A DNA stretch of 50,056 nt from Candidatus Woesearchaeota archaeon (GCA_047602885.1 JBLKOQ010000005.1:1-50056), one strand, 5' to 3'. Shown: positions 19,103-43,102, numbered from the stretch's first letter. Made by a program: numbers and translations. Notes: generated from the sequence alone by a model not told the origin.

Positions 19103-19323
19103 TTTGAATGAGTATATAAGGAATAACTAGATTATTCGACTTTAACATAGAAAAGCTTATAATCAACCATACATACATTCATAGTACGGTTATAACTGGT
19201 ATTGTGCTCCTGGGGTCGTCCCAGTACAGGCAATGCCCATGGTTCATAATGACACTTATTCTGATATCCTCTACAGAGCAATTCAAACCGACAGTTTTAT
19301 ATTATTCTAAAACATACTTCTAT

Positions 19324-19860
19324 ATGGCAAGCAAAGAAATATACAAAACAAACACAGTTTCTATACAACAGGGCAAAAATGACTTTAGTGTGGTTTATGA
19401 GACTCAGTATCTCAAAAGTGTACCATATTCTGTGAAGGGCAGTCTGCAAGTATTGTGTTCTAAACCTGAAGAAATCATCCATCATTTTAGCAATGGCACT
19501 TACCTTCATAGCACAATTATCCCTGGTAGTGAATTATATAATCGTGTTGTTGTTCCTGAAGGTTATACGTTATGCAACATTGTTATGGATTCGGAACATT
19601 ATCCTATACCTAGTGATACTTCTAAAGAAGACGTCACGCGAGGTATGGGATCTTTTTTCATTCTTTCATTAAAAGAGAATGAAGCTAAGGCAGAAGCGCA
19701 TATGAATGAAGCAAAAAATAACAGTCCTCTACATAAGACTAGTGTAGGAGGAATTAATGTCCTGGTTAAAGAAGTACAGATACCTGAAAATATCAAAAGA
19801 GAAATAAGAAGTCTTAATGATTATGAACTGCGTAAGCTTTTCGGAGATTACATACTATAG
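19324..19860 (+). CDS. Hypothetical protein
   Basis: Open frame; start set at ATG 19324; no recognisable motif. Confidence 0.55.
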   Translation: MASKEIYKTNTVSIQQGKNDFSVVYETQYLKSVPYSVKGSLQVLCSKPEEIIHHFSNGTYLHSTIIPGSELYNRVVVPEGYTLCNIVMDSEHYPIPSDTSKEDVTRGMGSFFILSLKENEAKAEAHMNEAKNNSPLHKTSVGGINVLVKEVQIPENIKREIRSLNDYELRKLFGDYIL

Positions 19861-19967
19861 TTAGCTACGTGCTACATGCAACAAATATTACTATTTATTA
19901 GCAGAAATCCCATTATATAGTAGCAACTAATAGCAATTCTTTTATATTCATCGTGTATTCTTTGAGT

Positions 19968-20555
19968 ATGGGCAGGAAAATTCCTATAAGGATAAGAAAA
20001 AATATTGCGAGGATGTATGATGCTGGGCTTAGTCCTAAAGAAATATCATTAAAAATGGGTGTTCCTTACGCTACCGTGTACGGGCATACTCGCTTAAGAG
20101 ATCGTATTAATCCTGAGACTGGTAAGAAGTTCGAGTCAAGACACCAATACCACGAATACCTCGCAAGACAAAAGACCAACCCCGAAACTGGCAAGCCTTT
20201 TGAGTCAAGACACCAATACCACGAATACCTCGCAAGACAAAAGACCAACCCCGAAACTGGAAAGAAGTTCGATACGTTATACCAGTATTATGATATGGTT
20301 GCCATAGAGAGGTCTCGTAATCTTGAAAATAGTGTGATTAGCAGTATCATTAATCTTAGGCTTAGAGAGCTAGCAAAGAATAAGTCATGGCTGTCCAAAC
20401 AAACAGGGATAGCATCGCAGAGGATATCAGAGTATGCTGCAGGAAAAATACTGCCTGAACCCGAGAATTTTAGGGCCATATGCAACGCTCTTGACATACG
20501 CTATGATACGCTAGAAAGCCTGCTATCTATAGAGTATAAGCCTATAAGAGAATAA
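19968..20555 (+). CDS. Transcriptional regulator: N-terminal HTH, three NPETG repeats, C-terminal XRE HTH
   Basis: GLSPKEISLKMGVPYATVY; KSWLSKQTGIASQRISEYAAGKILP. Confidence 0.8.
   Translation: MGRKIPIRIRKNIARMYDAGLSPKEISLKMGVPYATVYGHTRLRDRINPETGKKFESRHQYHEYLARQKTNPETGKPFESRHQYHEYLARQKTNPETGKKFDTLYQYYDMVAIERSRNLENSVISSIINLRLRELAKNKSWLSKQTGIASQRISEYAAGKILPEPENFRAICNALDIRYDTLESLLSIEYKPIRE
20109..20290 (+). repeat. 69-bp (23-aa) coding tandem repeat, about 2.6 copies
   Basis: NPETGK(K/P)FESRHQYHEYLARQKT starting at 20109, 20178 and 20247. Confidence 0.92.
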
Positions 20556-20625
20556 CCTGATATAATCTTAGAAATACTCACTTTTTTAAAACCATGCCCT
20601 TTTTTACTTTGTGGTCGGATATATA

Positions 20626-22278
20626 ATGGCTAATAATAAGGCAGAGGAGATGGCTCTAAAGCAGCGTGATATTAGCGTAGCAGAGTTTTTTGAGAAGAAC
20701 AGGCACTTATTAGGGTTTGACAATAAGAGGAAGGCATTATTGACTACTGTGAAAGAAGCTGTAGATAATGCTCTTGATGCCTGTGAAGAGGCTGATGTAC
20801 TACCTGAGATTATAGTAGAAATTGTTGATATGGGCAATGATAGGTTCAGGGTTGTCATAGAGGATAATGGTCCTGGTATAATAAAAGCTCAGATCCCAAA
20901 TATTTTTGCTAAACTATTATATGGCTCAAAATTCCATAAGCTCTCTCAGAGCAGGGGACAGCAAGGCATAGGAATATCAGCTTCTGTATTGTATGGTCAG
21001 CTTACTACTGGTAAGCCTGCCAGAATCACTAGTAAGACAGGTCCTAATAATCCTGCGCATTATTATGAATTGTATATTGATACTCAGAAGAATAAGCCTA
21101 CCATACAAAAGGATGATATTGTAGATTGGCATAAGGAGCAGGGAACTAAGATAGAAATAGACCTTGAAGGGAGTTATCTTAAAGGAGGCCAGAGTGTAGA
21201 CGAATATCTTAAGGAAACAGCTATTATTAATCCTCATTGTACTGTTATTTATACTAATCCCAAAGCAGAACAATTCATATTTGCGCGGGCTACTGATGTA
21301 TTGCCTAGAAAGCCTATCAGCATAAAACCCCATCCTCACGGCATAGAATTGGGTATGCTTATGAAGATGATACAACAGTCTGAGCATAAGACTCTTAGGT
21401 CTTTTATGATGAACGATTTTTCTAGGGTAGGGAGTCAGACTGCTAATGAGATATGTGCTAATGCTGCTATTCCTCCTGATACCAGGATAAAAAAGCTTAG
21501 TCATGAGGAGTATGACAGGCTTATGAAGGCTATTAAAGAGACTAGGATAATGGCTCCTTCCACAGAGTCTATTAGTCCTATAGGAAAGGAATTGGTGGAA
21601 AGAGGCCTAAAAAAAGAGATTAATGCAGAGTTTTATGTTTCTGTATCCAGGCCTCCTGCTATATATCGTGGTAATCCTTTTGTTATAGAAGTGGGAATGG
21701 CTTATGGTGGTGATATTCCTGGTGATAAGCCTGCTACCATGTTAAGATTTGCTAATAGGGTTCCATTATTATACCAGCAGGGTTCTTGCGCTTTTACTGA
21801 TGCTGTTGTTAAGACTAACTGGAAGTCTTATGGGTTATCCCAGAGTCAGAGGAGTCTTCCTCAAGGCCCTATAATAATATTAGTTCATATAGCCTCAGTA
21901 TGGGTTCCTTTTACCAGTGAGGCTAAAGAAGCTATAGCCCATTATCCTGAGATTATTAAAGAGGTTAGGCTTGCTATGCAAGAGGCAGGAAGATCATTAG
22001 GATCTTATGTTAGGAAGAAAGGCCGTGTTAAGGATGAGATGAAAAAACGTTCTTATATCGAAACGTACATCCCTCATATTTCGAGTGCTCTCATCGAATT
22101 ATTAGAATTGGACAATAAGCTTGAGCCTGAGATAAGCAATAACCTAAGAGTAATATTGGAGAAGACTCGTGGCAAGATAGCTGAAGTAGGATTAAAAGCT
22201 GAGGACAATACTGAGTATGACGAGGCATTAGCGTCTATAGGGAGAGGTAGTGGAGTTGAGGATGATGAAGAAGAATGA
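20626..22278 (+). CDS. top6B: DNA topoisomerase VI subunit B
   Basis: ISVAEFFEKN, KEAVDNALDACE, EDNGPG, QSRGQQGIG, RFANRVPL. Confidence 0.97.
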   Translation: MANNKAEEMALKQRDISVAEFFEKNRHLLGFDNKRKALLTTVKEAVDNALDACEEADVLPEIIVEIVDMGNDRFRVVIEDNGPGIIKAQIPNIFAKLLYGSKFHKLSQSRGQQGIGISASVLYGQLTTGKPARITSKTGPNNPAHYYELYIDTQKNKPTIQKDDIVDWHKEQGTKIEIDLEGSYLKGGQSVDEYLKETAIINPHCTVIYTNPKAEQFIFARATDVLPRKPISIKPHPHGIELGMLMKMIQQSEHKTLRSFMMNDFSRVGSQTANEICANAAIPPDTRIKKLSHEEYDRLMKAIKETRIMAPSTESISPIGKELVERGLKKEINAEFYVSVSRPPAIYRGNPFVIEVGMAYGGDIPGDKPATMLRFANRVPLLYQQGSCAFTDAVVKTNWKSYGLSQSQRSLPQGPIIILVHIASVWVPFTSEAKEAIAHYPEIIKEVRLAMQEAGRSLGSYVRKKGRVKDEMKKRSYIETYIPHISSALIELLELDNKLEPEISNNLRVILEKTRGKIAEVGLKAEDNTEYDEALASIGRGSGVEDDEEE

Positions 22279-23353
22279 TGTTAATGATAAGGTGAAGGAT
22301 GTTGCTGATGACATCTATAATGATATTGCTAAGCATCATAGTCCAAGCCTCAATATTCCTTTGAGGAGTCTTAATAATGTTGCTTATAATTCTAAGGACG
22401 GTTATTTTGAGCTTATAGGGAAGATGAAGAAGAGGACTCTTACTGCTAATACTGCCAAGACTTTTGCACAGACTCTAAGACTGTTAACATTGTCTAAAGA
22501 GCTTGTAAAAACTGATGATATTGCTACTAAAAGAGAAGCGTATTATGTTTCTAAGAACTGGGAGGAAGCCCGTTTTATAGAGCAGGAAGAGTCTGATACT
22601 GTAATGGATGATATTGAGGCAATGTTGCAGGTTAATAGGGAGCAGATGGGTTTTATTCCTGAAGAGAAGGGAGGGGATATTGCAGGCGAAATAGTTATTA
22701 TAGAAACTGATCCTGATACTAATAAGGAGGTTAGGCATGACTGTTCCAAATATGTTTCTGGAGCTTATAGTGTTCCTTCACAGGTAGAGGATCTTGGTTT
22801 TGAGACTAAAGCCAAACTGGTATTAGCAATAGAAACTGCGGGTATGTTCCAGCGGTTGGTTAAACATAAGTTTTGGAAGAAGCATAATGCTATACTTGTC
22901 AGTATGGGAGGAGTTCCTACTAGAGCTACTAGGAGGTTTGTAAGGAGGCTTTCTGACGAGAAAAATATACCTGTATTCGTTTTTACTGACGGCGATCCTT
23001 ATGGTTGGCTCAATATTTATAGAACGCTAAAAGTAGGCTCTGGCAACGCAGCTCATATTAATGAGTTCTTCTGTGTTCCTAAAGCAAAATTCTTTGGGAT
23101 TACCGCTAAGGATATTGTAAAGTATAAGCTGCCTACACATCCTCTCAAGGATGTTGATATTAAGAGGATACAGGATGGTTTGAAGAACGATCCTTTTATC
23201 AAGGCTCATAAGGAATGGCAGTTAGAGCTTAAGGACTTGATGAAAATGAAGAAGCGTGCAGAACAGCAAGCGCTCGCTACTCACGGTCTTAATTTTGTCA
23301 TCTCAGACTATCTGCCTCAGAAGATAAGTGATCCTAAGAGTTGGCTGCCTTAA
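22262..23353 (+). CDS. top6A: DNA topoisomerase VI subunit A
   Basis: TKREAYY, EQEESD, AIETAG, FTDGDPYG, KAEQQ-like motif. Confidence 0.97.
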   Translation: MMKKNDVNDKVKDVADDIYNDIAKHHSPSLNIPLRSLNNVAYNSKDGYFELIGKMKKRTLTANTAKTFAQTLRLLTLSKELVKTDDIATKREAYYVSKNWEEARFIEQEESDTVMDDIEAMLQVNREQMGFIPEEKGGDIAGEIVIIETDPDTNKEVRHDCSKYVSGAYSVPSQVEDLGFETKAKLVLAIETAGMFQRLVKHKFWKKHNAILVSMGGVPTRATRRFVRRLSDEKNIPVFVFTDGDPYGWLNIYRTLKVGSGNAAHINEFFCVPKAKFFGITAKDIVKYKLPTHPLKDVDIKRIQDGLKNDPFIKAHKEWQLELKDLMKMKKRAEQQALATHGLNFVISDYLPQKISDPKSWLP

Positions 23354-23365
23354 CTTTATAGGCCG

Positions 23366-24073
23366 TCATATCTGTCCTTGGTTATTGCCTCCTATGCCTA
23401 CTGCTGTTTTTATTGCTCCTGCAGCTTCTGCTATGGGATTCTTCTCAACCAATGGTATTTGCAAAAAATTTGCTATCTCTTGCGCTTGTCTTAACGTCTT
23501 GCTAGTGCCAAAAGCGCCAAGGCTTATCATTCCCCTCTCTGATGTTCTGGTAAATATTGTTATCATTCCTACCTTTGATGATATTAGTGTTATTGTCTCT
23601 GTAATCCTCATTCTTGGTCCTGTACTGCCTCTACCGCTTGCAGAAGTGGAGCCGAATGTCATTTGCTGGTCTTTCCTGTATTCTACACTCTTAATATCTG
23701 ATAATTCTGCTGCAACATCCTGTTTTTTTAGCAGTCCTTTCCTGTTAAGCGTCATCCTGCCTAGATTCTTGTCCAGTACTATAGTTAGTCTTGACCATGT
23801 AGCTATTACTAGTCCTCCTACAGCAAGGAATATGAGTGGTACGTATGATGCAAATTGGTTGTATACGAATGGTATGACAAAGAATAATGCGATTCCCACT
23901 ACCGCAAATATTAGCCCGAATACTATCTGGACTATGCCAAGGTCATCAAGCGTCATCTTTGTATTATCAGTTTTGATTCTCATCCACAAATACTCCAATA
24001 TAGTGTATATATACTTTGTTATCATCCTTCTCCCCATTATAGTATCATTTAGTAAACTTTTAATAAAGGACAT
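23366..24073 (-). CDS. Membrane hypothetical protein (true start probably downstream, about 23989)
   Basis: Two TM helices followed by a soluble beta-rich domain. Confidence 0.6.
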   Translation of the reverse strand: MSFIKSLLNDTIMGRRMITKYIYTILEYLWMRIKTDNTKMTLDDLGIVQIVFGLIFAVVGIALFFVIPFVYNQFASYVPLIFLAVGGLVIATWSRLTIVLDKNLGRMTLNRKGLLKKQDVAAELSDIKSVEYRKDQQMTFGSTSASGRGSTGPRMRITETITLISSKVGMITIFTRTSERGMISLGAFGTSKTLRQAQEIANFLQIPLVEKNPIAEAAGAIKTAVGIGGNNQGQI

Positions 24074-24088
24074 TTAGTCCTTGTTCTT

Positions 24089-24682
24089 ATGAAGATAGGA
24101 TTGGATATGGATGAAGTATTGGCTCAGTTCCTCGCTACTTTCATAATATACCATAATGATAAGTATAATACTAATCATAGGCTTGAGGATATTGACGAGT
24201 TTGAGTTATGGAAGGTCTGGGGTGGGAAGAAGGGCGAGATAGGAGAGAGGATTAAGCAGTTTATTAAGGATGGTGGAGTAAGCTCTCTTAGTCCTGTTCC
24301 TAATGCCCAAAAAATCATTATGGAATTGAAAAAAGATCACGAACTCTTTGTGATTACTGCAAGGCATGATTCCGGCAGACTGTTGACTGAGAAGTGGCTT
24401 GAAGAGCATTATCCTGAAGCTTTTATGGATGTTCATTTCTCTAATGATTCTCATAAGGATAATGAGAGCCAGAAGTCTAAGGCTGATATATGCACAGAAC
24501 TTGGCATTGATATAATGGTAGAGGACTCTTATGAGTTCGCTCATACTATAGCATCTGTAAATATTCCTGTATTGCTTTTAGATTATTCTTGGAATAGGAA
24601 TAAGCCTCCTACCCATAATATTTATCGCGTATATTCGTGGAATGATATTCCTAGGAAGATTAATAGTATTCATAATGTATAG
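24089..24682 (+). CDS. HAD-family 5'(3')-deoxyribonucleotidase (NT5C-like)
   Basis: IGLDMDEVL, VITAR, MVEDS, WNR. Confidence 0.88.
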   Translation: MKIGLDMDEVLAQFLATFIIYHNDKYNTNHRLEDIDEFELWKVWGGKKGEIGERIKQFIKDGGVSSLSPVPNAQKIIMELKKDHELFVITARHDSGRLLTEKWLEEHYPEAFMDVHFSNDSHKDNESQKSKADICTELGIDIMVEDSYEFAHTIASVNIPVLLLDYSWNRNKPPTHNIYRVYSWNDIPRKINSIHNV

Positions 24683-25170
24683 TTAGTGTGTGTTATGTCC
24701 TCTAGTTCTGCCATGTAGTTCATATTATCGATTGATACTGCAACCCCTCTCATTATCCTGTTTTTATTGCGCTTAAACATGTTCTGTATTATGATATAGT
24801 CCGATGGTATTATCTCTTTTTTCCTCTTTTGGAGTTCTCTTAACGGTATCCTCTCTATGCCTTTTCCTCTGGGCTCTTCGTCTACAGGCATTATGTATAT
24901 GTGCATAGAATAGTGTCCTATCCTTCCCTTTTCTATTATAGTCTCATATAGTATTCCTCCGCCTGATAAAGGCGCTTGGAAGACTCCTATTTCTTCTACC
25001 ATCTCTCTCATCAGAGCCTCATAATAGTCATAATCGTGCTCTTCGACTTTCCCGCCTGGAAGTCCTAATAGTCCTTTGTAAGGACTCTTCTCTCTTCTTA
25101 TAAGGTACATACCCTTATCGTATATTGGAATCGCCAGTGACACTTTTATCAGTCTCTCTAAGCCCTCCAT
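24670..25170 (-). CDS. NUDIX hydrolase
   Basis: LPGGKVE...ALMREMVEEIG. Confidence 0.88.
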   Translation of the reverse strand: MEGLERLIKVSLAIPIYDKGMYLIRREKSPYKGLLGLPGGKVEEHDYDYYEALMREMVEEIGVFQAPLSGGGILYETIIEKGRIGHYSMHIYIMPVDEEPRGKGIERIPLRELQKRKKEIIPSDYIIIQNMFKRNKNRIMRGVAVSIDNMNYMAELEDITHTNYTL

Positions 25171-35523: not shown

Positions 35524-35599
35524 GCCTCTGTGGCGCAGCCGGTAGCGCGCGTCCTTGGTAAGGACGAGGTCCCGGGTTCAAATCCCGGCAGAGGCTCCA
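35524..35599 (+). tRNA. tRNA-Thr(GGT), CCA encoded
   Basis: Acceptor GCCTCTG/CAGAGGC-T-CCA; CGTCC-TTGGTAA-GGACG. Confidence 0.95.
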
Positions 35600-35646
35600 T
35601 TCTTATTGCGACGTACTATTATATATTACTACATTATACTATTATC

Positions 35647-36027
35647 ATGCAAATCAATATACAAACGAATAAGCGTAACGAGATTATTGATATTACCGAT
35701 AAAGTTCAAAAGTCAATTAAAGATAATGGTAATGCTGTAATCATCAGCAATCCCCATACTACTTGCGGCATAATGGTTAACGAAGGATATGATCCTGATG
35801 TTGCCAATGATATTATTGCCAAACTCAATAATCTTATACCCAAGTCAGAATCGTATTATAGGCATGCTGAGGGAAACTCTGACTCTCATCTTAAGACTGC
35901 TATTATCGGAAACAGTGTTACGCTTCCTATGGACGATAACCATATTAGGCTTGGCAGGTGGCAGAGGATATTCCTATGCGAGTTTGACGGGCCAAGATTA
36001 AGAAAGGTAGATATCGACATATTGTAA
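35647..36027 (+). CDS. YjbQ/UPF0047 family protein
   Basis: IIDIT, HTTCG..NE..DPDV, HAEGNSDSHLK, LGRWQ..EFDGPR; the longer ORF start lies inside tRNA-Thr. Confidence 0.9.
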   Translation: MQINIQTNKRNEIIDITDKVQKSIKDNGNAVIISNPHTTCGIMVNEGYDPDVANDIIAKLNNLIPKSESYYRHAEGNSDSHLKTAIIGNSVTLPMDDNHIRLGRWQRIFLCEFDGPRLRKVDIDIL

Positions 36028-36043
36028 CTATAATACAATATTG

Positions 36044-37000
36044 CTATTCATATCTGAGCATTATAGGATCTATAGGAGTGTCTTTGAATGTCCCTCCTAA
36101 CCTTGCGACGGTATATTTTTGGGGACTGAATTCATTTCTTAGGCTTTCTATAAAAGGAATGTCTCCGTACGATTCTATTACCAGCATGTAATCATAGTAT
36201 CCAATCATCCGATATGCTTCTATTATGTTCTTGTTGTTTCTGAGGAATCTTACGAACTTTTCTGGCTCTGCTATATCCGCATTGGATAGTTTTACGAATA
36301 TGAAAAACTTGGATATTCCTATCTTATCATACCTAATGTTGCATGTATATCCCATTATTATCTGGTCATTCTCCATTTTTCCTAGCTCTTTTCTTGTCGT
36401 CTGCGGACTAAGTTTTGTTTTCTTTGACAGCTCGCTTATTGGCGCGGAGGCATCTTGTATTAGTATCTTAATGAGATTATATTGTCTCTTTGTGAGTTGA
36501 AGATTTCTATGTCCTGCGCTCATTTCTATACCCCTGCGAGGTTTGGTTCTTCTTTGATACTGCCTTCCGTAATGCCATTTTGATGTAATAGTGCTGTATT
36601 CAGGGCTTTCTATGTCCTCTGAATGTTTCTCTAACAGTTCCGCTAGAACTCTTTCTATTGCAGATATGCTCATTACATTGTATTCTGCTATGCAATCGTA
36701 TCCATATTGTCCAAGGTGTATTGAGCTGATTTCAGGAGTCTCTTTTAGGTATCCTATTATCTCTTTAAGTTTTGATGTTGAGTAGTGCTTTAGGTTAAAG
36801 AACATTATCATGCCAGTGTATCCCAGTAATAGTGTGTTTAGCAGTATCGTCTTATCTATAATCTTTGATTCTGACGATAGCTTTCTGTTAAGGTATGCTA
36901 CTCCTTGCGGTGTAATCCCCAGTTTTCTTGCCAGTTCAGAGTTGGATTGCCTGCTGTTGTTTGTCAATTCATATATGAGATATCCAATATTACGTTTCAT
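36044..37000 (-). CDS. Tandem (double) Lrp/AsnC transcriptional regulator
   Basis: Two HTH units: NSRQSNSELARKLGITPQ and DASAPISELSKKTKLS; GYYDY. Confidence 0.85.
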   Translation of the reverse strand: MKRNIGYLIYELTNNSRQSNSELARKLGITPQGVAYLNRKLSSESKIIDKTILLNTLLLGYTGMIMFFNLKHYSTSKLKEIIGYLKETPEISSIHLGQYGYDCIAEYNVMSISAIERVLAELLEKHSEDIESPEYSTITSKWHYGRQYQRRTKPRRGIEMSAGHRNLQLTKRQYNLIKILIQDASAPISELSKKTKLSPQTTRKELGKMENDQIIMGYTCNIRYDKIGISKFFIFVKLSNADIAEPEKFVRFLRNNKNIIEAYRMIGYYDYMLVIESYGDIPFIESLRNEFSPQKYTVARLGGTFKDTPIDPIMLRYE

Positions 37001-37095
37001 ATTTTTAATAATGACAATAATATATATAAATATTTCCTATATTTAAAGTATATTGTTTCCAAAATATTATAAGTGTTATGTGCTGCACTTGTCTT

Positions 37096-37231
37096 ATGGT
37101 ACGCGACTCTAATGAGGCTGATGAGGATGGTTGTAGGTATTCTTATAGTTTTATCATCATGCCTAGCGCCCTTTACTAACGAGTATTATTGTTATTGTAA
37201 TGCTCAAGGACTAGGTCTAAATCGTTGCCAT
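37096..37231 (+). promoter_or_regulatory. Candidate structured 5' leader RNA of the ATP-grasp operon
   Basis: Downstream of a TATA-like box (37066-37072); four complementary stems with G.U pairs, closing 8 nt before SD GGAGG. Confidence 0.45.
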
Positions 37232-37253
37232 GATATTATGGAGGGGAATTAGT

Positions 37254-38180
37254 ATGAAAGCAGTAATATTGCATGAGAACATTGAATGGGCAGAACTGCA
37301 GTTTTCCAAAGAGCTGCAAAATAGAGGAATAGAATGTACACTCCATGATATTAGGGACCTGGACGAAGGCAAAATAAAGGAGTTGTTGGATATGAACCCT
37401 GATCTTGTGTTGAACAGGGTATATCCCTCTGTTGCTTACAGGAATTATCATAATAACATTAAGGCTTTAGCGCTTATGAAAGAGTTTGAGAACAATGACA
37501 TTTTTTGTGTTAACTCTTATCAGACCACTAAAGCCGATTATAGCAAGCATAAATCCGCATCTATAATGGAGAATAATGGAGTGTCAACACCAAAAACATT
37601 ATACTTTTCCAAATATGAGTACGATATAGGAAAGATAGAGGATTTTGTGGCATTGCATGGATTTCCACTAATAATGAAAAGAGATATAGGGGGCAGAGGA
37701 AGGGATATCACCCTTATAGAATCAAAGGAACAGCTGTACCGACAGGTAATAAGAGTCCTTTTGGAAGTACAGTCAGACAATTATGAAGCAGGGTATGTCC
37801 TGCAGGAGTTCATTCATCCCGTAAGAAATCATGATTGCAGAATAGCCATAATAGACGGAAAATTCGTATTCTCGTATGGGAGAACACTAATTCCTAGACC
37901 TGGATTTAGTGAGAGCCCGTGGCTTGCGAGCGTTTCTAACGGCTCTCAAATAATATCTTACAGTCCTTCTGAAGAAGAAATTGAACTGGCTATTAAGGCA
38001 ACCAGTGCTATAGGAGCCTTGTTTAATGAGGTTGATATGACGTTTAGCTCTAAAGGACCTACGATCATAGAAAACAATCCATCCCCAAACTATGATCCAG
38101 GAGAAGAAGAGCTTATTGATAAAGCGGTCAGTCTAATACTTGCCAAGATTGGTGATAAGGTTGTTTTACGCCACGATTAA
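37254..38180 (+). CDS. RimK/LysX-family ATP-grasp ligase
   Basis: LNRV, VNS, PKT, FPLIMK..GGRG, LQEFI, DCR, VDM, ENN. Confidence 0.88.
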   Translation: MKAVILHENIEWAELQFSKELQNRGIECTLHDIRDLDEGKIKELLDMNPDLVLNRVYPSVAYRNYHNNIKALALMKEFENNDIFCVNSYQTTKADYSKHKSASIMENNGVSTPKTLYFSKYEYDIGKIEDFVALHGFPLIMKRDIGGRGRDITLIESKEQLYRQVIRVLLEVQSDNYEAGYVLQEFIHPVRNHDCRIAIIDGKFVFSYGRTLIPRPGFSESPWLASVSNGSQIISYSPSEEEIELAIKATSAIGALFNEVDMTFSSKGPTIIENNPSPNYDPGEEELIDKAVSLILAKIGDKVVLRHD

Positions 38181-39096
38181 CTCTTATATTCCAGACAATC
38201 CTTATTGCAATGAGGGAACAGCTGATTTTACACTGCGAATCCAGGAGAGAGGATTGGATCCTATACTACTATTTCCCAGTGAGATTGGCAAAGAAGATCC
38301 TCCGAGGCTGTTTAGGCCTCATTATTACAGGAAGAATGGGATTACAGGAATATTTTTGGAACAGTTATCTGAAGTTTTGGACTATGACTCTTTTTTTTGG
38401 GTTTATGGATTGGATGAACAAGAACCATCCATGAATTCAGGATTCTTTCCAGGCCTTAAAGAGTATAATGACAGTGGGATGAGGATGATGAACACTCCAG
38501 TGGCAGAATACTGGGCCGCATCAAAAAAGAACATACTAAAGCTTGACAGTATTCCTATTCCCCGTACATATATAGCAGACAGTGAAGATGATTTGTTGGA
38601 ATTGCTAAAAGATGAAGGCAGACTGGTTGCAAAGGCAGACTCCAGTTTTAGGGGTGCCAACATACATCTCATAGAACATACCAGTATTGGCTCAGAATCA
38701 TATAATGCAGTCGCATCAAATATTGAAGGCTACATATTACAAGAGTTAGTGCCCAACGATAACGAAACACGACTAATATATCTTGACGGAAAGCTTATAG
38801 CATCCCGCCAGATAATCAACAGGGAAACGCCATGGGAAAAGAGAACTGGCGATTATGCTAATAGAAAATCTGTTAATCGCAGTCTTAAAATACCATATAA
38901 TCCTTCGAAAGAGGAGTTGGATATAGCAAGTTCTATCATAGAGCAGACAGGAATGGAATACGGCTCGATAGACTTTTTTGTAGGCGACAAAATAGTAGTG
39001 AACGAAATCAACGGTTCAGGAACAGGAACAGAGCCATACAAAGGACTAATAATTACGGACATGCTACTAGACCATGTCATAAGGAAGTATCTGTAA
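38152..39096 (+). CDS. Glutathione-synthetase(GshB)-like ATP-grasp ligase, paralog A
   Basis: EGTADFTLRIQERG N-terminus, MNTP, AKADSSFRG, LQE, TRLIYLDG, IDF, NEIN; GTG start by collinearity with paralog B. Confidence 0.8.
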   Translation: MIRLFYATINSYIPDNPYCNEGTADFTLRIQERGLDPILLFPSEIGKEDPPRLFRPHYYRKNGITGIFLEQLSEVLDYDSFFWVYGLDEQEPSMNSGFFPGLKEYNDSGMRMMNTPVAEYWAASKKNILKLDSIPIPRTYIADSEDDLLELLKDEGRLVAKADSSFRGANIHLIEHTSIGSESYNAVASNIEGYILQELVPNDNETRLIYLDGKLIASRQIINRETPWEKRTGDYANRKSVNRSLKIPYNPSKEELDIASSIIEQTGMEYGSIDFFVGDKIVVNEINGSGTGTEPYKGLIITDMLLDHVIRKYL

Positions 39097-39121
39097 ATGG
39101 AAATGGCACTATATTGGAGAG

Positions 39122-40066
39122 GTGATGGCATTGTTTTATCTTACGTTAAATTCTGACATTCCAGTAAACCCCTTCTATTATGATAGTACTATCGACATTG
39201 TTTTCAAAGTTCAGGATAGGGGTTTGGATATCAGGGCAATTTTTCCTTCAGAAGTGGGTAAAGAAAACAGTCCTACCCTATATTATCCTATATCATCAGT
39301 AATTAAAGGTACCAGGGGACTGTTCTTAGAGCGTACTAATGATAAAATTGACAATGACTCTGTCATCTGGATATATGGTCTTGATGAGCATAGGCCTGCA
39401 CTGAATCCTAATTTATTTGGCGGACTGCAACAATATCATGAAAGTGGGATGAGGATGATGAACACTCCAGTGGCAGAATACTGGGCCGCATCAAAGAAGA
39501 ACATACTAAAGCTTGATAGTATTCCCATTCCAAGAACGTACAGTTTAAGCAGTGAAGAAGAACTTATTGGTCTCTTAAAAGATGAAAAAAGATTGGTTGC
39601 AAAGGCAGACTCAAGTTTCGGAGGACATAACATACATCTCATAGAACATAATAGTATTGGCTCAGAATCGTATAATGCAGTAGCATCAAATATTGAAGGC
39701 TATATAATACAAGAGTATGTGCCCAACGATAACGAAACACGACTAATATATCTTGACGGAAAGCTTATAGCATCCCGCCAGATAATCAACAGGGAAACGC
39801 CATGGGAGAAGAGAAGCGCGGATTATGACCCTTCATCTGCTTCACGTAAAAAAAGGGTTATTCCGTATACACCCACAAGAAAAGAATTGTATACTGCCAA
39901 CTCTATTATAGAACAGACAGGAATGGAATACGGCTCGATAGACTTTTTTGTAGGCGACAAAGTAGTAGTGAACGAAATCAACGGTTCAGGAACAGGAACA
40001 GAGCCATACAAAGGACTAATAATAACGGACATGCTGCTGGACCATGTCATAAGGAAGTATTTGTAA
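39122..40066 (+). CDS. GshB-like ATP-grasp ligase, paralog B
   Basis: DSTIDIVFKVQDRG (compare GshB DSxxxMLxEAQRRG); same ATP-grasp motifs. Confidence 0.8.
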   Translation: MMALFYLTLNSDIPVNPFYYDSTIDIVFKVQDRGLDIRAIFPSEVGKENSPTLYYPISSVIKGTRGLFLERTNDKIDNDSVIWIYGLDEHRPALNPNLFGGLQQYHESGMRMMNTPVAEYWAASKKNILKLDSIPIPRTYSLSSEEELIGLLKDEKRLVAKADSSFGGHNIHLIEHNSIGSESYNAVASNIEGYIIQEYVPNDNETRLIYLDGKLIASRQIINRETPWEKRSADYDPSSASRKKRVIPYTPTRKELYTANSIIEQTGMEYGSIDFFVGDKVVVNEINGSGTGTEPYKGLIITDMLLDHVIRKYL

Positions 40067-40067
40067 A

Positions 40068-40907
40068 ATGCACAAGGCAAGAATAATAGCACCGTCACAC
40101 AGGTTTAGGAGGAAGGATTATGATCGTGCTATTAGCAATATGAAAAGGCTTGGATATAGTTATTCGCATTCTGACAAATTGTTTGACAGGGATCTTGCCT
40201 ATGCCGGTAAGGCTATAGACCGTGCAAAAGACATTAATGATGCTTACTCTGATAATAATACAGATATTATATGGGCTATTAGGGGCGGGAATGGAAGTAT
40301 AGAAACTCTTAGCCATATTGACTTTGCTCAAATAAAAGATAATCCTAAGCCTATGATAGGATACAGTGATGTCAGTTTGCTATTGAATGTTATCAACCAG
40401 AAGACAGGTGTTAGGATGATTCACGGTCCTAATGCTGCATACAAAGTCGATGACAAATACCGAAGGTCTGTTGAGCAATCCATTATGGATTGTATTGACA
40501 GGAATCATTATTCAATGCCTTTGGTCAACACCAATTTCTTAGGAAATATTACCGGCAAAATAGTCGGAGGCAACCTCTCATTGGTTGTAGACTCTCTTGG
40601 GACATCTTTTGAGATAGATACTGATGACAGTATACTGTTTTTTGAGGACCTCGATATTAAGGGGAGGAGATTATACACTCTTCTCGTACAATTATATCTT
40701 GCGGGCAAGCTTAATGTCAATGCGATAGTGTTTGGTCATTTCAAGAACTGCAGCCATCATAAGCATTATATCAGGTTGTTTGTCAGCCGTTATAATATCA
40801 ATGCTGCTTATACGAATAGTTTTGGCCATGGGAATATCAATATTGCTTTTCCCATAGGTGATAATGCTATAATCTCTTCTAAAGACAATAGCATATTATT
40901 CTATTAG
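40068..40907 (+). CDS. S66 family LD-carboxypeptidase / MccF-like peptidase
   Basis: IIAPS, AIRGG, IGYSD, HGP, GGNLS, FFED, FGH; Ser-Glu-His triad present. Confidence 0.9.
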   Translation: MHKARIIAPSHRFRRKDYDRAISNMKRLGYSYSHSDKLFDRDLAYAGKAIDRAKDINDAYSDNNTDIIWAIRGGNGSIETLSHIDFAQIKDNPKPMIGYSDVSLLLNVINQKTGVRMIHGPNAAYKVDDKYRRSVEQSIMDCIDRNHYSMPLVNTNFLGNITGKIVGGNLSLVVDSLGTSFEIDTDDSILFFEDLDIKGRRLYTLLVQLYLAGKLNVNAIVFGHFKNCSHHKHYIRLFVSRYNINAAYTNSFGHGNINIAFPIGDNAIISSKDNSILFY

Positions 40908-41641: not shown

Positions 41642-43102
41642 ATGGCAGAAGAAGAACGTAATAATGATGGGGATGAGCCTTTAAAAGGACCTAGGATTAC
41701 TCATATCCAGAGGGAATCATCCCCTAAGAGTGAGCCTGACAATTTTTGGAAGATAGCCGCTTTTGGTTTTCTCATACTGCTAATAGTAAGTATAGGAACT
41801 AGGGGTTTTACCTCTTTTGATTTGTTTGCTGGTACAGATCCTACAGGAAGAGCTATTCTTCCAGGTGATGACGTGCAGGTTGACGGATTCTATTTTTTGG
41901 GTGATGAGAATGCTCCTGTAACGATTATAGAATATTCTGATTATATGTGTCCTTTCTGTCAGAGGCATCATGTCCAGACTCTGCCGAGGATTATGGAAAA
42001 CTATATCGAGACTGGCAAGGTAAGGTATGCTTTTGTAGACTATCCTGCTATCAGGCATCCTGTAACAGAGCCTGCGGCTAATGCAGCATGGTGTGCTGGA
42101 GACCAAGGAAGATATTATGAGTACAATGATATTATATTCAGTAATTTTGACAGTCTAAGAACTGTTACAGGCAATCCTAATGCTCAATTATTGGGTTTTG
42201 GAGAGCAATTAGGGCTTGATATGGATGCTTTTACTGAGTGTGTAGAGGCAGGAAGACATCTTGATGGTATCATGCAAAGAGCTCAGGAAGCCTCTCAACG
42301 TGGAGTGCAGGCCACCCCAACATTTTTCATTAATGATGTGATGGTTAGGGGCGCTCAGGATTATAGGGTATTCGAAGAGTATATCGAGCAGGCACTTGCA
42401 GGAGATCTTGAAGCTCCTCCGCCACAAGTAGAGGAGATTGTAGAGCAACTTCCATCCTCTCCTGAAATAATCACTTTTAGCGTACAAGGCCCTATGCTTG
42501 GCGATAGTGAAGCTCCTATTAGCATATCAGACTTTTCGAGCTATCAGTGCCCATTCTGTGCAAGATTCCATCTTCAGACACTCCCTCATATAAGATCAGA
42601 ATATATCGAAGAAGGAATAGTTAGGATGTATGCAAGAGACTTCCCATTGGCTATGCAAGTGAATAGCGCTCCTGCTGCTAATGCAGCTCATTGTGCAGGA
42701 GACCAGGACTCTTATTTTGAGTACCAATCAATACTTTATAATAGGCAGTCTACATGGGCATCTCTACCAAATCCTACTGATGCTTTTGTCAGTTATGCCG
42801 TAGAATTAAATCTTGATGAGGATATTTTTAGGAGCTGTGTTGAGGATTCTGTTCATGCTCAAAGAGTCCAGTCTGACTTCGGAGTAGGACAATCTGTAGG
42901 AGTGTCAGGCACCCCATCATTTATTGTGTTAACATCCAAAGAAAATGTTGATGTTGATGCACTTGTAGAATTGCAGATGCCTGACGGCAGAGGCGGTTTC
43001 TTCATAAGGTATATTGAGACAGAAGAAGGCCTTGCAGGCGCTAGAGTGGTTGGTGCCCAGCCAGCAGAAGTATTCGATGCTGTGATATCAGCATTAAGAT
43101 AA
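41642..43102 (+). CDS. Membrane-anchored double DsbA/thioredoxin-domain oxidoreductase
   Basis: Two units with DYMCPFC / SYQCPFC, TPTF/TPSF and GAQ; SD GGAGG. Confidence 0.9.
   Translation: MAEEERNNDGDEPLKGPRITHIQRESSPKSEPDNFWKIAAFGFLILLIVSIGTRGFTSFDLFAGTDPTGRAILPGDDVQVDGFYFLGDENAPVTIIEYSDYMCPFCQRHHVQTLPRIMENYIETGKVRYAFVDYPAIRHPVTEPAANAAWCAGDQGRYYEYNDIIFSNFDSLRTVTGNPNAQLLGFGEQLGLDMDAFTECVEAGRHLDGIMQRAQEASQRGVQATPTFFINDVMVRGAQDYRVFEEYIEQALAGDLEAPPPQVEEIVEQLPSSPEIITFSVQGPMLGDSEAPISISDFSSYQCPFCARFHLQTLPHIRSEYIEEGIVRMYARDFPLAMQVNSAPAANAAHCAGDQDSYFEYQSILYNRQSTWASLPNPTDAFVSYAVELNLDEDIFRSCVEDSVHAQRVQSDFGVGQSVGVSGTPSFIVLTSKENVDVDALVELQMPDGRGGFFIRYIETEEGLAGARVVGAQPAEVFDAVISALR

Follow-up and report, generated by a model that had tools for sequence, protein, structure and literature searches.

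A modular cluster of ATP-grasp ligases and an S66 peptidase in DPANN archaea, a candidate route to a small non-ribosomal peptide

Peptide synthesis by ATP-grasp ligases is known in itself. Here we describe an operon of three ATP-grasp ligase genes and one S66 serine peptidase gene, opposite a gene for a tandem-fused Lrp/AsnC-type regulator, in a 50,056-nucleotide (nt) stretch of DNA from a Candidatus Woesearchaeota archaeon (GCA_047602885.1 JBLKOQ010000005.1:1-50056; hereafter the whole stretch is called the window). We consider it somewhat better than an even call that the operon is a self-contained module, in which the ligases would assemble a peptide of three or four residues stepwise and without ribosomes and the S66 enzyme would trim or recycle it, and that such modules occur sporadically in archaea of the Woesearchaeota and Pacearchaeota type (DPANN). 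Two of the ligases belong to an ATP-grasp family without a curated model, which we name FAM, and the peptidase falls in an apparently dedicated branch of S66 proteins; the unnamed ligase family and the S66 branch are what is new. Full-text literature searches turned up no account of a cluster joining ATP-grasp and S66 genes, either in DPANN archaea or elsewhere, in line with an annotation of this locus made from the sequence alone (the initial annotation), which knew of no such pathway in DPANN. Iyer and colleagues surveyed the gene neighbourhoods of amidoligases in 2009, and their work may bear on priority.

Organization of the operon

The operon consists of four co-oriented genes on the plus strand. 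Gene 1 (37254 to 38180; open reading frame (ORF) open from 37230) encodes a 308-residue ligase of the RimK/LysX clade and likely starts at the ATG at 37254, with GGAGGGG just before it. Gene 2 (FAM-A; 38152 to 39096; ORF open from 38140) and its tandem paralog gene 3 (FAM-B; 39122 to 40066) encode GshB-like ATP-grasp ligases that both start in register at GTG, the likely start of gene 2 being at 38152. Gene 4 (40068 to 40907) encodes a 279-residue S66 serine peptidase of the LD-carboxypeptidase family. Genes 1 and 2 overlap by 29–41 nt, genes 2 and 3 are separated by 25 nt, and genes 3 and 4 by 1 nt, so that the ORF list reproduces both the tight spacing and the orientation described in the initial annotation. 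The 318-residue double Lrp/AsnC-type regulator is encoded on the minus strand (36044 to 37000), divergent to the ligase operon. The AT-rich intergenic region between the divergent genes (37001 to 37253), as read directly from the sequence, presumably holds the promoters and an operator. Promoter, terminator and repeat scans of this region gave nothing above background, and neither this region nor the flanking DNA of another 14 clusters yielded a conserved small ORF (15–110 residues, within 600 nt).

Conservation of the cluster

We searched 401 genomes of the phylum, a denominator that includes a few genomes flagged as unpublished, none of which contributes a locus described here. A strong FAM match, defined as a full-length match at E < 1e-30, was present in nine of them: the window's own genome (G000), G036, G407, G159, G113, G155, G394, G062 and G050. 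In 97 other genomes, the matches at E ≤ 1e-8 are partial ones, to generic ATP-grasp genes or to a separate GSH-S_ATP/FGase group described below. An S66 gene adjoins FAM in eight of the nine genomes with strong matches. In G036, the four components of the window's cluster occur in the same order at only 25–35% protein identity. At such low identity, the shared order is not that of one DNA block inherited from a recent common ancestor, and its recurrence in other genomes points to an arrangement beyond chance.

The nine genomes differ in what surrounds this core. In G036, a double Lrp gene is divergent from genes for an Asp-type racemase, a RimK-like ligase, FAM, S66 and an AsnB::Dph6 fusion, and G407 likewise has a double Lrp gene divergent from a racemase, a RimK-like ligase, FAM and S66. 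G159 has a racemase, a RimK-like ligase, FAM, S66 and DUF3335, and G062 has a racemase, a RimK-like ligase, a DcsG-like ligase and FAM, without S66. G113 combines an Orr-like racemase, an LdmS-like ligase, FAM and a second GshB-like ligase with an S66 gene on the opposite strand. In G155, an opine dehydrogenase gene lies between FAM and S66; in G394, a double Lrp gene is divergent from FAM and S66 alone; and in G050, a DcsG-like ligase and FAM precede an S66 gene cut by the contig end. The fusion in G036 (L007:7277-9361), encoded right after the S66 gene, is a 694-residue protein, a possible member of the cluster, joining a glutamine-dependent asparagine synthase to a Dph6-type diphthine–ammonia ligase. 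Its Dph6 part scores above the equivalog cut-off, and the protein has a sub-threshold NCBIfam match to the amidotransferase model of N-acetylglutaminylglutamine amide (NAGGN) synthesis.

A collection of species genomes yielded 11 FAM loci, labelled Woesearchaeota or Pacearchaeota and, in one case, Methanosarcinales, which bears out the DPANN setting assumed at the outset. FAM is followed directly by S66 in all 11, and a RimK-like gene stands in front in seven. Two of these loci are contigs of G159 and G113, giving 18 distinct genome loci altogether, in which FAM is adjoined by S66 in 17, by a RimK-like gene in 11 and by a racemase in six. A metagenome survey seeded on gene 1 gave 79 loci, which fell into 60 groups when RimK-like proteins of at least 90% identity were merged; the counts take in only those groups whose contigs extend far enough in the direction concerned. 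An Asp/Glu-type racemase gene lies directly upstream of the RimK-like gene in 21 of 40 groups, a FAM-type ligase gene within three genes downstream in 25 of 44, and an S66 gene within five genes downstream in 12 of 28. Among the 22 groups with a strong FAM match, S66 is the next gene in 15 and is not in five, the remaining two being cut by contig ends; in those 15 of the 20 dereplicated groups with room, the gap between FAM and S66 ranges from −107 to +30 nt. The linkages on which the initial annotation relied have thus fared differently: that of the peptidase to the ligases recurs in genomes and metagenomes alike, whereas the double Lrp gene adjoins the FAM cluster in only four of the 18 genome loci.

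The racemases are of three kinds. An Asp-type enzyme (TIGR00035/CuyB, above cut-off) is encoded directly upstream of the RimK-like gene in G036, G407, G159 and G062, a glutamate racemase occurs in locus L060, and the G113 enzyme is Orr-like. Further genes in the related genome loci include those for DcsG-like ligases, the opine dehydrogenase and the AsnB fusion; those in metagenome runs encode GSH-S_ATP-like ligases, ATP-grasp_3, a glutathionylspermidine-synthase (GSP_synth)-like protein, a pyridoxal-phosphate (PLP)-dependent enzyme and a methyltransferase. The clusters form a modular family, in which the commonest pair is a racemase and a RimK-like ligase; between one and three additional ligases extend it, and S66 usually comes last.

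Three studies of lake water and soda lakes provide metagenomes with near-identical DNA, and two of the runs may be the source sample. One metatranscriptome run contains five contigs of 182–314 nt, 94–98% identical to the window, that lie on gene 1, the junction of genes 1 and 2, gene 2, the junction of genes 2 and 3, and gene 4; the Lrp gene and parts of the operon are uncovered, which in such data shows nothing. These contigs hint, weakly, at transcription of the operon in a close relative.

A separate, recurrent triad is found in a sister class (L045, L046, L047 and L048, from G233, G253, G311 and G280), where genes for two GSH-S_ATP-like ligases are followed by one for an N-formylglutamate amidohydrolase (FGase), beside ribosomal-protein genes. 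Although a pair of ligases is again combined with a hydrolase, we treat this triad as a different system from the FAM clusters.

The FAM ligase family

Genes 2 and 3 are 70% identical to each other and match no Pfam family above cut-off, PF02955 included. Their NCBIfam matches are weak ATP-grasp ones (MptN, rimK_fam and glutathione synthetase; E 1e-5 to 1e-9), and against the GshB model NF009110 they score 18 and 24.7 bits, far below the cut-off of 408. A word-index search of 5.8 billion proteins with gene 3 returned only the window's two paralogs. Among 1.84 billion representatives, the FAM profile detected 95 proteins at E ≤ 1e-3, of which 24 were at E ≤ 1e-10, the best non-self match having an E value of 1.7e-26, and an Atlas look-up gave neighbours that are all generic RimK/GshB-like proteins. 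Relatives of 458–526 residues, considered as possible FAM fusions, proved to be ordinary RimK–RimB fusions.

The catalytic residues of the family are intact, as the initial annotation had it: among 42 aligned members, K125, K161, R207, D274 and N287 are invariant, and E205, R219 and E285 are at least 90% conserved. The alignment of the profile with Escherichia coli GshB (E 8e-12) spans the full length and keeps the catalytic Lys, Arg, Asp, Glu and Asn motifs in register, although the proteins are only 15–17% identical. The AlphaFold model of gene 3 (pLDDT 91.4) has the three-domain ATP-grasp fold. Its best structural match is E. coli GshB (1gsa), with a Z of 23.3 and an alignment of 291 of 314 residues; LysX, DcsG, ArgX and RimK tie with it, at a distance of less than one Z unit. 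The description 'GshB-like' in the initial annotation therefore holds for the fold but is not specific. Foldseek alone ranked GshB, LysX, RimK and the graspetide macrocyclases together; in VIA-align, the macrocyclases reach a Z score of about 18, as against 22–23 for GshB, LysX and RimK. Taken together, the sequence and model comparisons describe FAM as GshB-like in architecture yet not GshB. No member of either GshA family (PF04262 and PF04107) was found in the window's genome, a 1.07-Mb assembly of 47 contigs that is 91.8% complete, which goes against the refuting case foreseen in the initial annotation, namely ligases grouping with bona fide GshB and a gshA elsewhere in the genome.

The two paralogs are a mosaic. 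Their identity at third codon positions is 0.30–0.33 over residues 1–90, rises to 0.83–0.87 over residues 181–240, falls to 0.43 over residues 241–270 and reaches 1.00 over residues 271–300. This is the pattern expected of an old duplication whose catalytic core has been homogenised by gene conversion, with the N-terminal domain and one loop kept divergent. In GshB, the N-terminal domain and the corresponding loop contact the peptide substrate. FAM-A and FAM-B therefore probably take different acyl substrates, an assignment made by analogy with GshB. In run X9, one contig of a related soda-lake strain connects position 39913 with 38944, a backward jump of 970 nt and thus of the same length as the spacing of the paralogs. 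Either the assembly is chimeric across the stretch subject to gene conversion, or the strain has a third FAM copy in tandem.

The RimK/LysX-like ligase and the genome background

The identification of gene 1 as a RimK-like ligase stands, since it scores 57 bits against PF08443 (cut-off 21). With the curated subfamily models it stays below the cut-offs, at 91.8 bits against TIGR00768 (cut-off 143.4), 31.5 against the RimK equivalog (331) and 60.3 against the LysX/ArgX model TIGR02144 (275.6). The best structural matches of its AlphaFold model (pLDDT 91.7) are LysX, ArgX and RimK, at Z 26.3–27.6, and the next match has a Z of 23.6. Its homologs fall into 38 clusters at 36–51% identity, six with a source name: three are called 'hypothetical protein' or 'ATP-grasp domain-containing protein', two bear generic RimK/CofF- or GshB/RimK-type names, and one carries a Patescibacteria label (P0122; 42% identity). 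That label and the Methanosarcinales label of the FAM–S66 locus L059 may be explained by gene transfer to lineages outside DPANN or by mis-binning.

The genome has its own LysX. Contig C32 (about 19250–24900; L082:4759-10424) carries lysW, lysX, a homoisocitrate-type dehydrogenase gene, lysY, a GATase-like gene, lysZ and lysJ, and the lysX product scores 343 bits against a cut-off of 275.6, as a true LysX does. For a DPANN-type genome of 1.07 Mb, it is notable to have a complete amino-group-carrier pathway of the LysW type. The initial annotation was right that the window has no LysW; elsewhere in the genome, on C32, LysW does occur, together with a LysX pathway of its own. No LysW above cut-off occurs in the five other cluster-bearing genomes compared. 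The conclusion that ordinary glutathione or lysine synthesis does not explain the locus is strengthened by the absence of gshA together with this separate lysW–lysX cluster; synthesis of glutathione, or of lysine or arginine on LysW, has nothing but a weak family resemblance in its favour, leaves the equivalog scores far below their cut-offs and is already contradicted.

A ligase-linked branch of S66 peptidases

Gene 4 matches Peptidase_S66 (108.1 bits) and Peptidase_S66C (74.4 bits), both above cut-off, and at least 35 of the 36 S66 proteins in the comparison share its Ser-Glu-His triad, S100, E193 and H254; family and triad are thus as first annotated. Among sequences in the PDB, LdcA-type chains align over the full length, whereas MccF-type chains align in part (E 1e-13 to 1e-18). 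Against the LdcA equivalog NF008424, the protein scores 92.5 bits, below the cut-off of 378. Family scans of the clusters showed no adenylating enzyme that would serve as an MccB-like synthesis gene.

S66 proteins occur at 73 places in 63 of the 401 genomes, and 54 of these 63 genomes have no strong FAM match. In a tree of 17 ligase-linked and 19 other S66 proteins of the phylum, one branch with 100/99 support splits the two sets; the latter, drawn from the 73 places as mostly the top Pfam scorers and four lower ones, come from genomes without strong FAM, the neighbourhood having been examined for G349 only. The linked set includes the G324 protein, placed there by its hidden Markov model score and because another kind of ATP-grasp gene lies next to its own. 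The tree points to a dedicated ligase-linked branch.

The double Lrp regulator and neighbouring genes

The regulator contains two HTH_AsnC/HTH_24 (helix-turn-helix) stretches and an AsnC_trans_reg (RAM) domain in Pfam and is twice the standard Lrp length, which confirms its reading as a double Lrp. Its orthologs in G036, G407 and G394, which are divergent beside the cluster, are 19–25% identical over the full length. With at most six matches listed per genome, the same architecture, of about 320–350 residues, is present in 259 of the 401 genomes. The double Lrp is the phylum's common regulator type, and only some copies are tied to the FAM cluster. Some lie near other ATP-grasp genes, as in G044:C3 and G139:C23.

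The genes flanking the locus, for a YjbQ-type protein, tRNA-Thr and an FMN reductase, are unrelated to it. The tRNA-Thr gene (35524–35599) overlaps the 5′ part of the YjbQ-type ORF (35530–36027); the YjbQ family match begins at residue 41, and the true start is probably 3′ of the tRNA gene. Downstream, a 486-residue ORF on the plus strand (41642–43102), read in translation, begins with a hydrophobic stretch at the N-terminus, carries two CPFC motifs, in halves that repeat each other, and looks like a duplicated DsbA/thioredoxin-type protein.

Proposed mechanism

With the gene identities, intact catalytic residues, conserved linkage and paralog mosaic observed, we infer the substrates, the order of steps and the role of the peptidase as follows. 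Gene 1 would make the first amide bond, activating a carboxylate as an acyl phosphate and coupling it to an amino acid. The FAM ligases would then extend the C-terminus residue by residue, as GshB does on gamma-Glu-Cys, and the two copies may act in successive elongation to a tetrapeptide or give two alternative products. The co-transcribed S66 enzyme would remove a terminal residue, for maturation, length control, or turnover and recycling, and the divergent double Lrp probably ties expression to amino-acid supply. In many relatives, an Asp-, Glu- or Orn-type racemase may supply a D-amino acid, which would match the preference of S66 enzymes for L–D bonds. Because G000 has no racemase, its own product would be all-L or made with scavenged D-amino acids. 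A more specific proposal, tentative and in our estimate possible rather than likely, is that these archaea make a novel glutathione-like or murein-stem-like tri- or tetrapeptide, with a D-acidic residue in many lineages, whose level or length would be set by a dedicated LD-carboxypeptidase.

Several observations weigh against a dedicated peptide pathway. No residue of the N-terminal domain is invariant among the 42 FAM members. Neither PF01177 nor PF01168 racemases are found in G000, nor PF01177 in G113, G155, G394 or G050, and the theme of D-amino acids may not apply to the window's cluster. No transporter or exporter is conserved beside the clusters. S66 is not obligatory, being missing in G062 and not directly downstream in five of the 20 metagenome FAM groups, and a hydrolase co-expressed with the ligases that make its substrate looks futile unless it is regulated or acts in maturation. 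A ligase paired with a hydrolase of its own product is known from glutathionylspermidine synthetase/amidase. The contigs of the metatranscriptome are subject to the caveat that an RNA library can hold DNA, and they show neither strand nor level. Moreover, the nearest structures of gene 1, namely RimK, LysX and ArgX, all act on protein C-termini, and the small-peptide product is itself putative. Stepwise assembly, as first proposed, fits the racemases, extra ligases and tailoring enzymes of the relatives, and the part of the peptidase may be editing, recycling or protection.

Alternative explanations

The main rival is post-translational tailing, in which the ligases would add amino acids to a protein C-terminus, in the manner of RimK on S6 or of tubulin–tyrosine ligase (TTL), and the S66 enzyme would trim the tail. 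We regard it as unlikely but not negligible, because of what the nearest structures of gene 1 do: RimK acts on RpsF, and LysX and ArgX act on LysW. The RimK–RimB-type protease fusions among the weak relatives show that a ligase–protease pairing recurs, and no exporter is conserved. G159 and G062 are among the clusters that abut ribosomal-protein genes, and the FAM member of G036 has a weak TTL match (E 1.7e-4). Against it, no conserved partner or small ORF is present near 15 clusters, no LysW above cut-off was found in five other cluster-bearing genomes, and to our knowledge archaea lack bacterial S6. We favour a free peptide over a protein tail because the clusters of the relatives hold three kinds of racemase, an opine dehydrogenase, a PLP-dependent enzyme, a methyltransferase and extra ligases.

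Slightly less probable again is an antimetabolite, a 'Trojan-horse' peptide directed against hosts or competitors, with the S66 enzyme as an MccF-like self-immunity protein. In bacteria, dipeptide antibiotics are products of ATP-grasp L-amino-acid ligases, the S66 family includes the MccF-type immunity proteins, which are found among the PDB matches of gene 4, and the patchy distribution (nine of 401 genomes) and differing tailoring genes are those of an accessory trait. Set against this, no exporter is conserved, the full-length alignment is with LdcA-type rather than MccF-type chains, and gene 4, as the last gene of the operon, is coupled in translation to the ligases, so that its enzyme would meet the product in the producer's own cytoplasm.

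We consider it very improbable that the operon serves the salvage or remodelling of scavenged bacterial peptidoglycan peptides, with S66 removing the terminal D-Ala and the ligases re-extending or converting the remainder. Murein tetrapeptide LD-carboxypeptidases are the nearest full-length relatives of gene 4, and S66 is fairly common in this wall-less phylum. Catabolism needs no ligases, however; most S66-bearing genomes have no strong FAM, the ligase-linked proteins form a separate group, and no Mur ligase, MraY-type transferase or alanine racemase was found in G000, the same negatives on which we reject a murein or pseudomurein wall of its own.

Maturation of a graspetide, a peptide made by ribosomes and modified after translation (RiPP), with an ATP-grasp enzyme cross-linking the precursor and S66 removing its leader or tail, is rejected as scarcely credible: PsnB, PruB and CdnC are among the top Foldseek and profile matches, and NCBIfam gives weak matches to GRASP_w_spasm and MvdC, but these reach 19–22 bits against cut-offs of 230–425, the macrocyclases fall behind in VIA-align, the surroundings of the 15 clusters hold no conserved candidate precursor ORF, and the racemases imply free amino-acid substrates.

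Comparison with known systems

Among characterized pathways, glutathione synthesis offers the closest parallel for the FAM steps, since two or three ligases in series suggest a similar stepwise C-terminal extension. It differs in that the first ligase here is RimK/LysX-like rather than GshA-like, and in that the FAM clusters add a dedicated S66 peptidase and often a racemase. RimK, LysX and ArgX are closest to gene 1 in sequence and fold, and the RimK–RimB pair likewise joins a ligase to a peptidase, but the peptidase here is S66 and not retropepsin-like RimB, the window's locus has no LysW or S6 partner, and the related clusters are linked to racemases. The dipeptide osmolyte NAGGN is made by a cluster comprising the ATP-grasp ligase Ngg, the amidotransferase AsnO and a peptidase. 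It resembles the FAM clusters in pairing an ATP-grasp ligase with a peptidase and, in G036, in the AsnB-type amidotransferase, whereas the ligase and peptidase families differ and the FAM-related clusters come from non-saline groundwater and soda lakes.

With LdcA and MccF, gene 4 shares both S66 domains and the catalytic triad. It is shorter, belongs to the separate ligase-linked group and cannot have as its substrate murein made by this organism. A precedent is the racD–aslA operon of Lactococcus, which combines an Asp racemase with an ATP-grasp D-Asp ligase, with amidation by AsnH (PMC4155827); the module belongs to the D-Asp cross-bridge of Lactococcus and Enterococcus peptidoglycan. Relatives of the window's cluster likewise have an Asp racemase gene immediately beside that of an ATP-grasp ligase and, in one of them, G036, have an asparagine-synthase-type amidotransferase nearby. 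The FAM archaea differ in having no murein genes found, NCBIfam scans gave no specific AslA match, and the window's cluster has no racemase.

Biological implications

With their very small genomes, DPANN archaea are regarded as poor in metabolites of their own, and a conserved modular operon with two to four amide ligases, a co-evolving peptidase and, in many cases, a racemase points to a dedicated peptide. Neither the FAM family nor the ligase-linked S66 branch had been named before. If the product proves to be a murein-stem-like or glutathione-like peptide, it would represent the first non-murein role of an S66 enzyme and the first assigned use of D-Asp or D-Glu in archaea, and it could serve as a cofactor, a redox buffer, or a signal or antimetabolite exchanged with the host. 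If found, the product could explain why some archaea retain aspartate or glutamate racemases and could bring a new cofactor, signal or weapon into the biology of symbiont and host; the enzymes would be candidates for making short L/D peptides.

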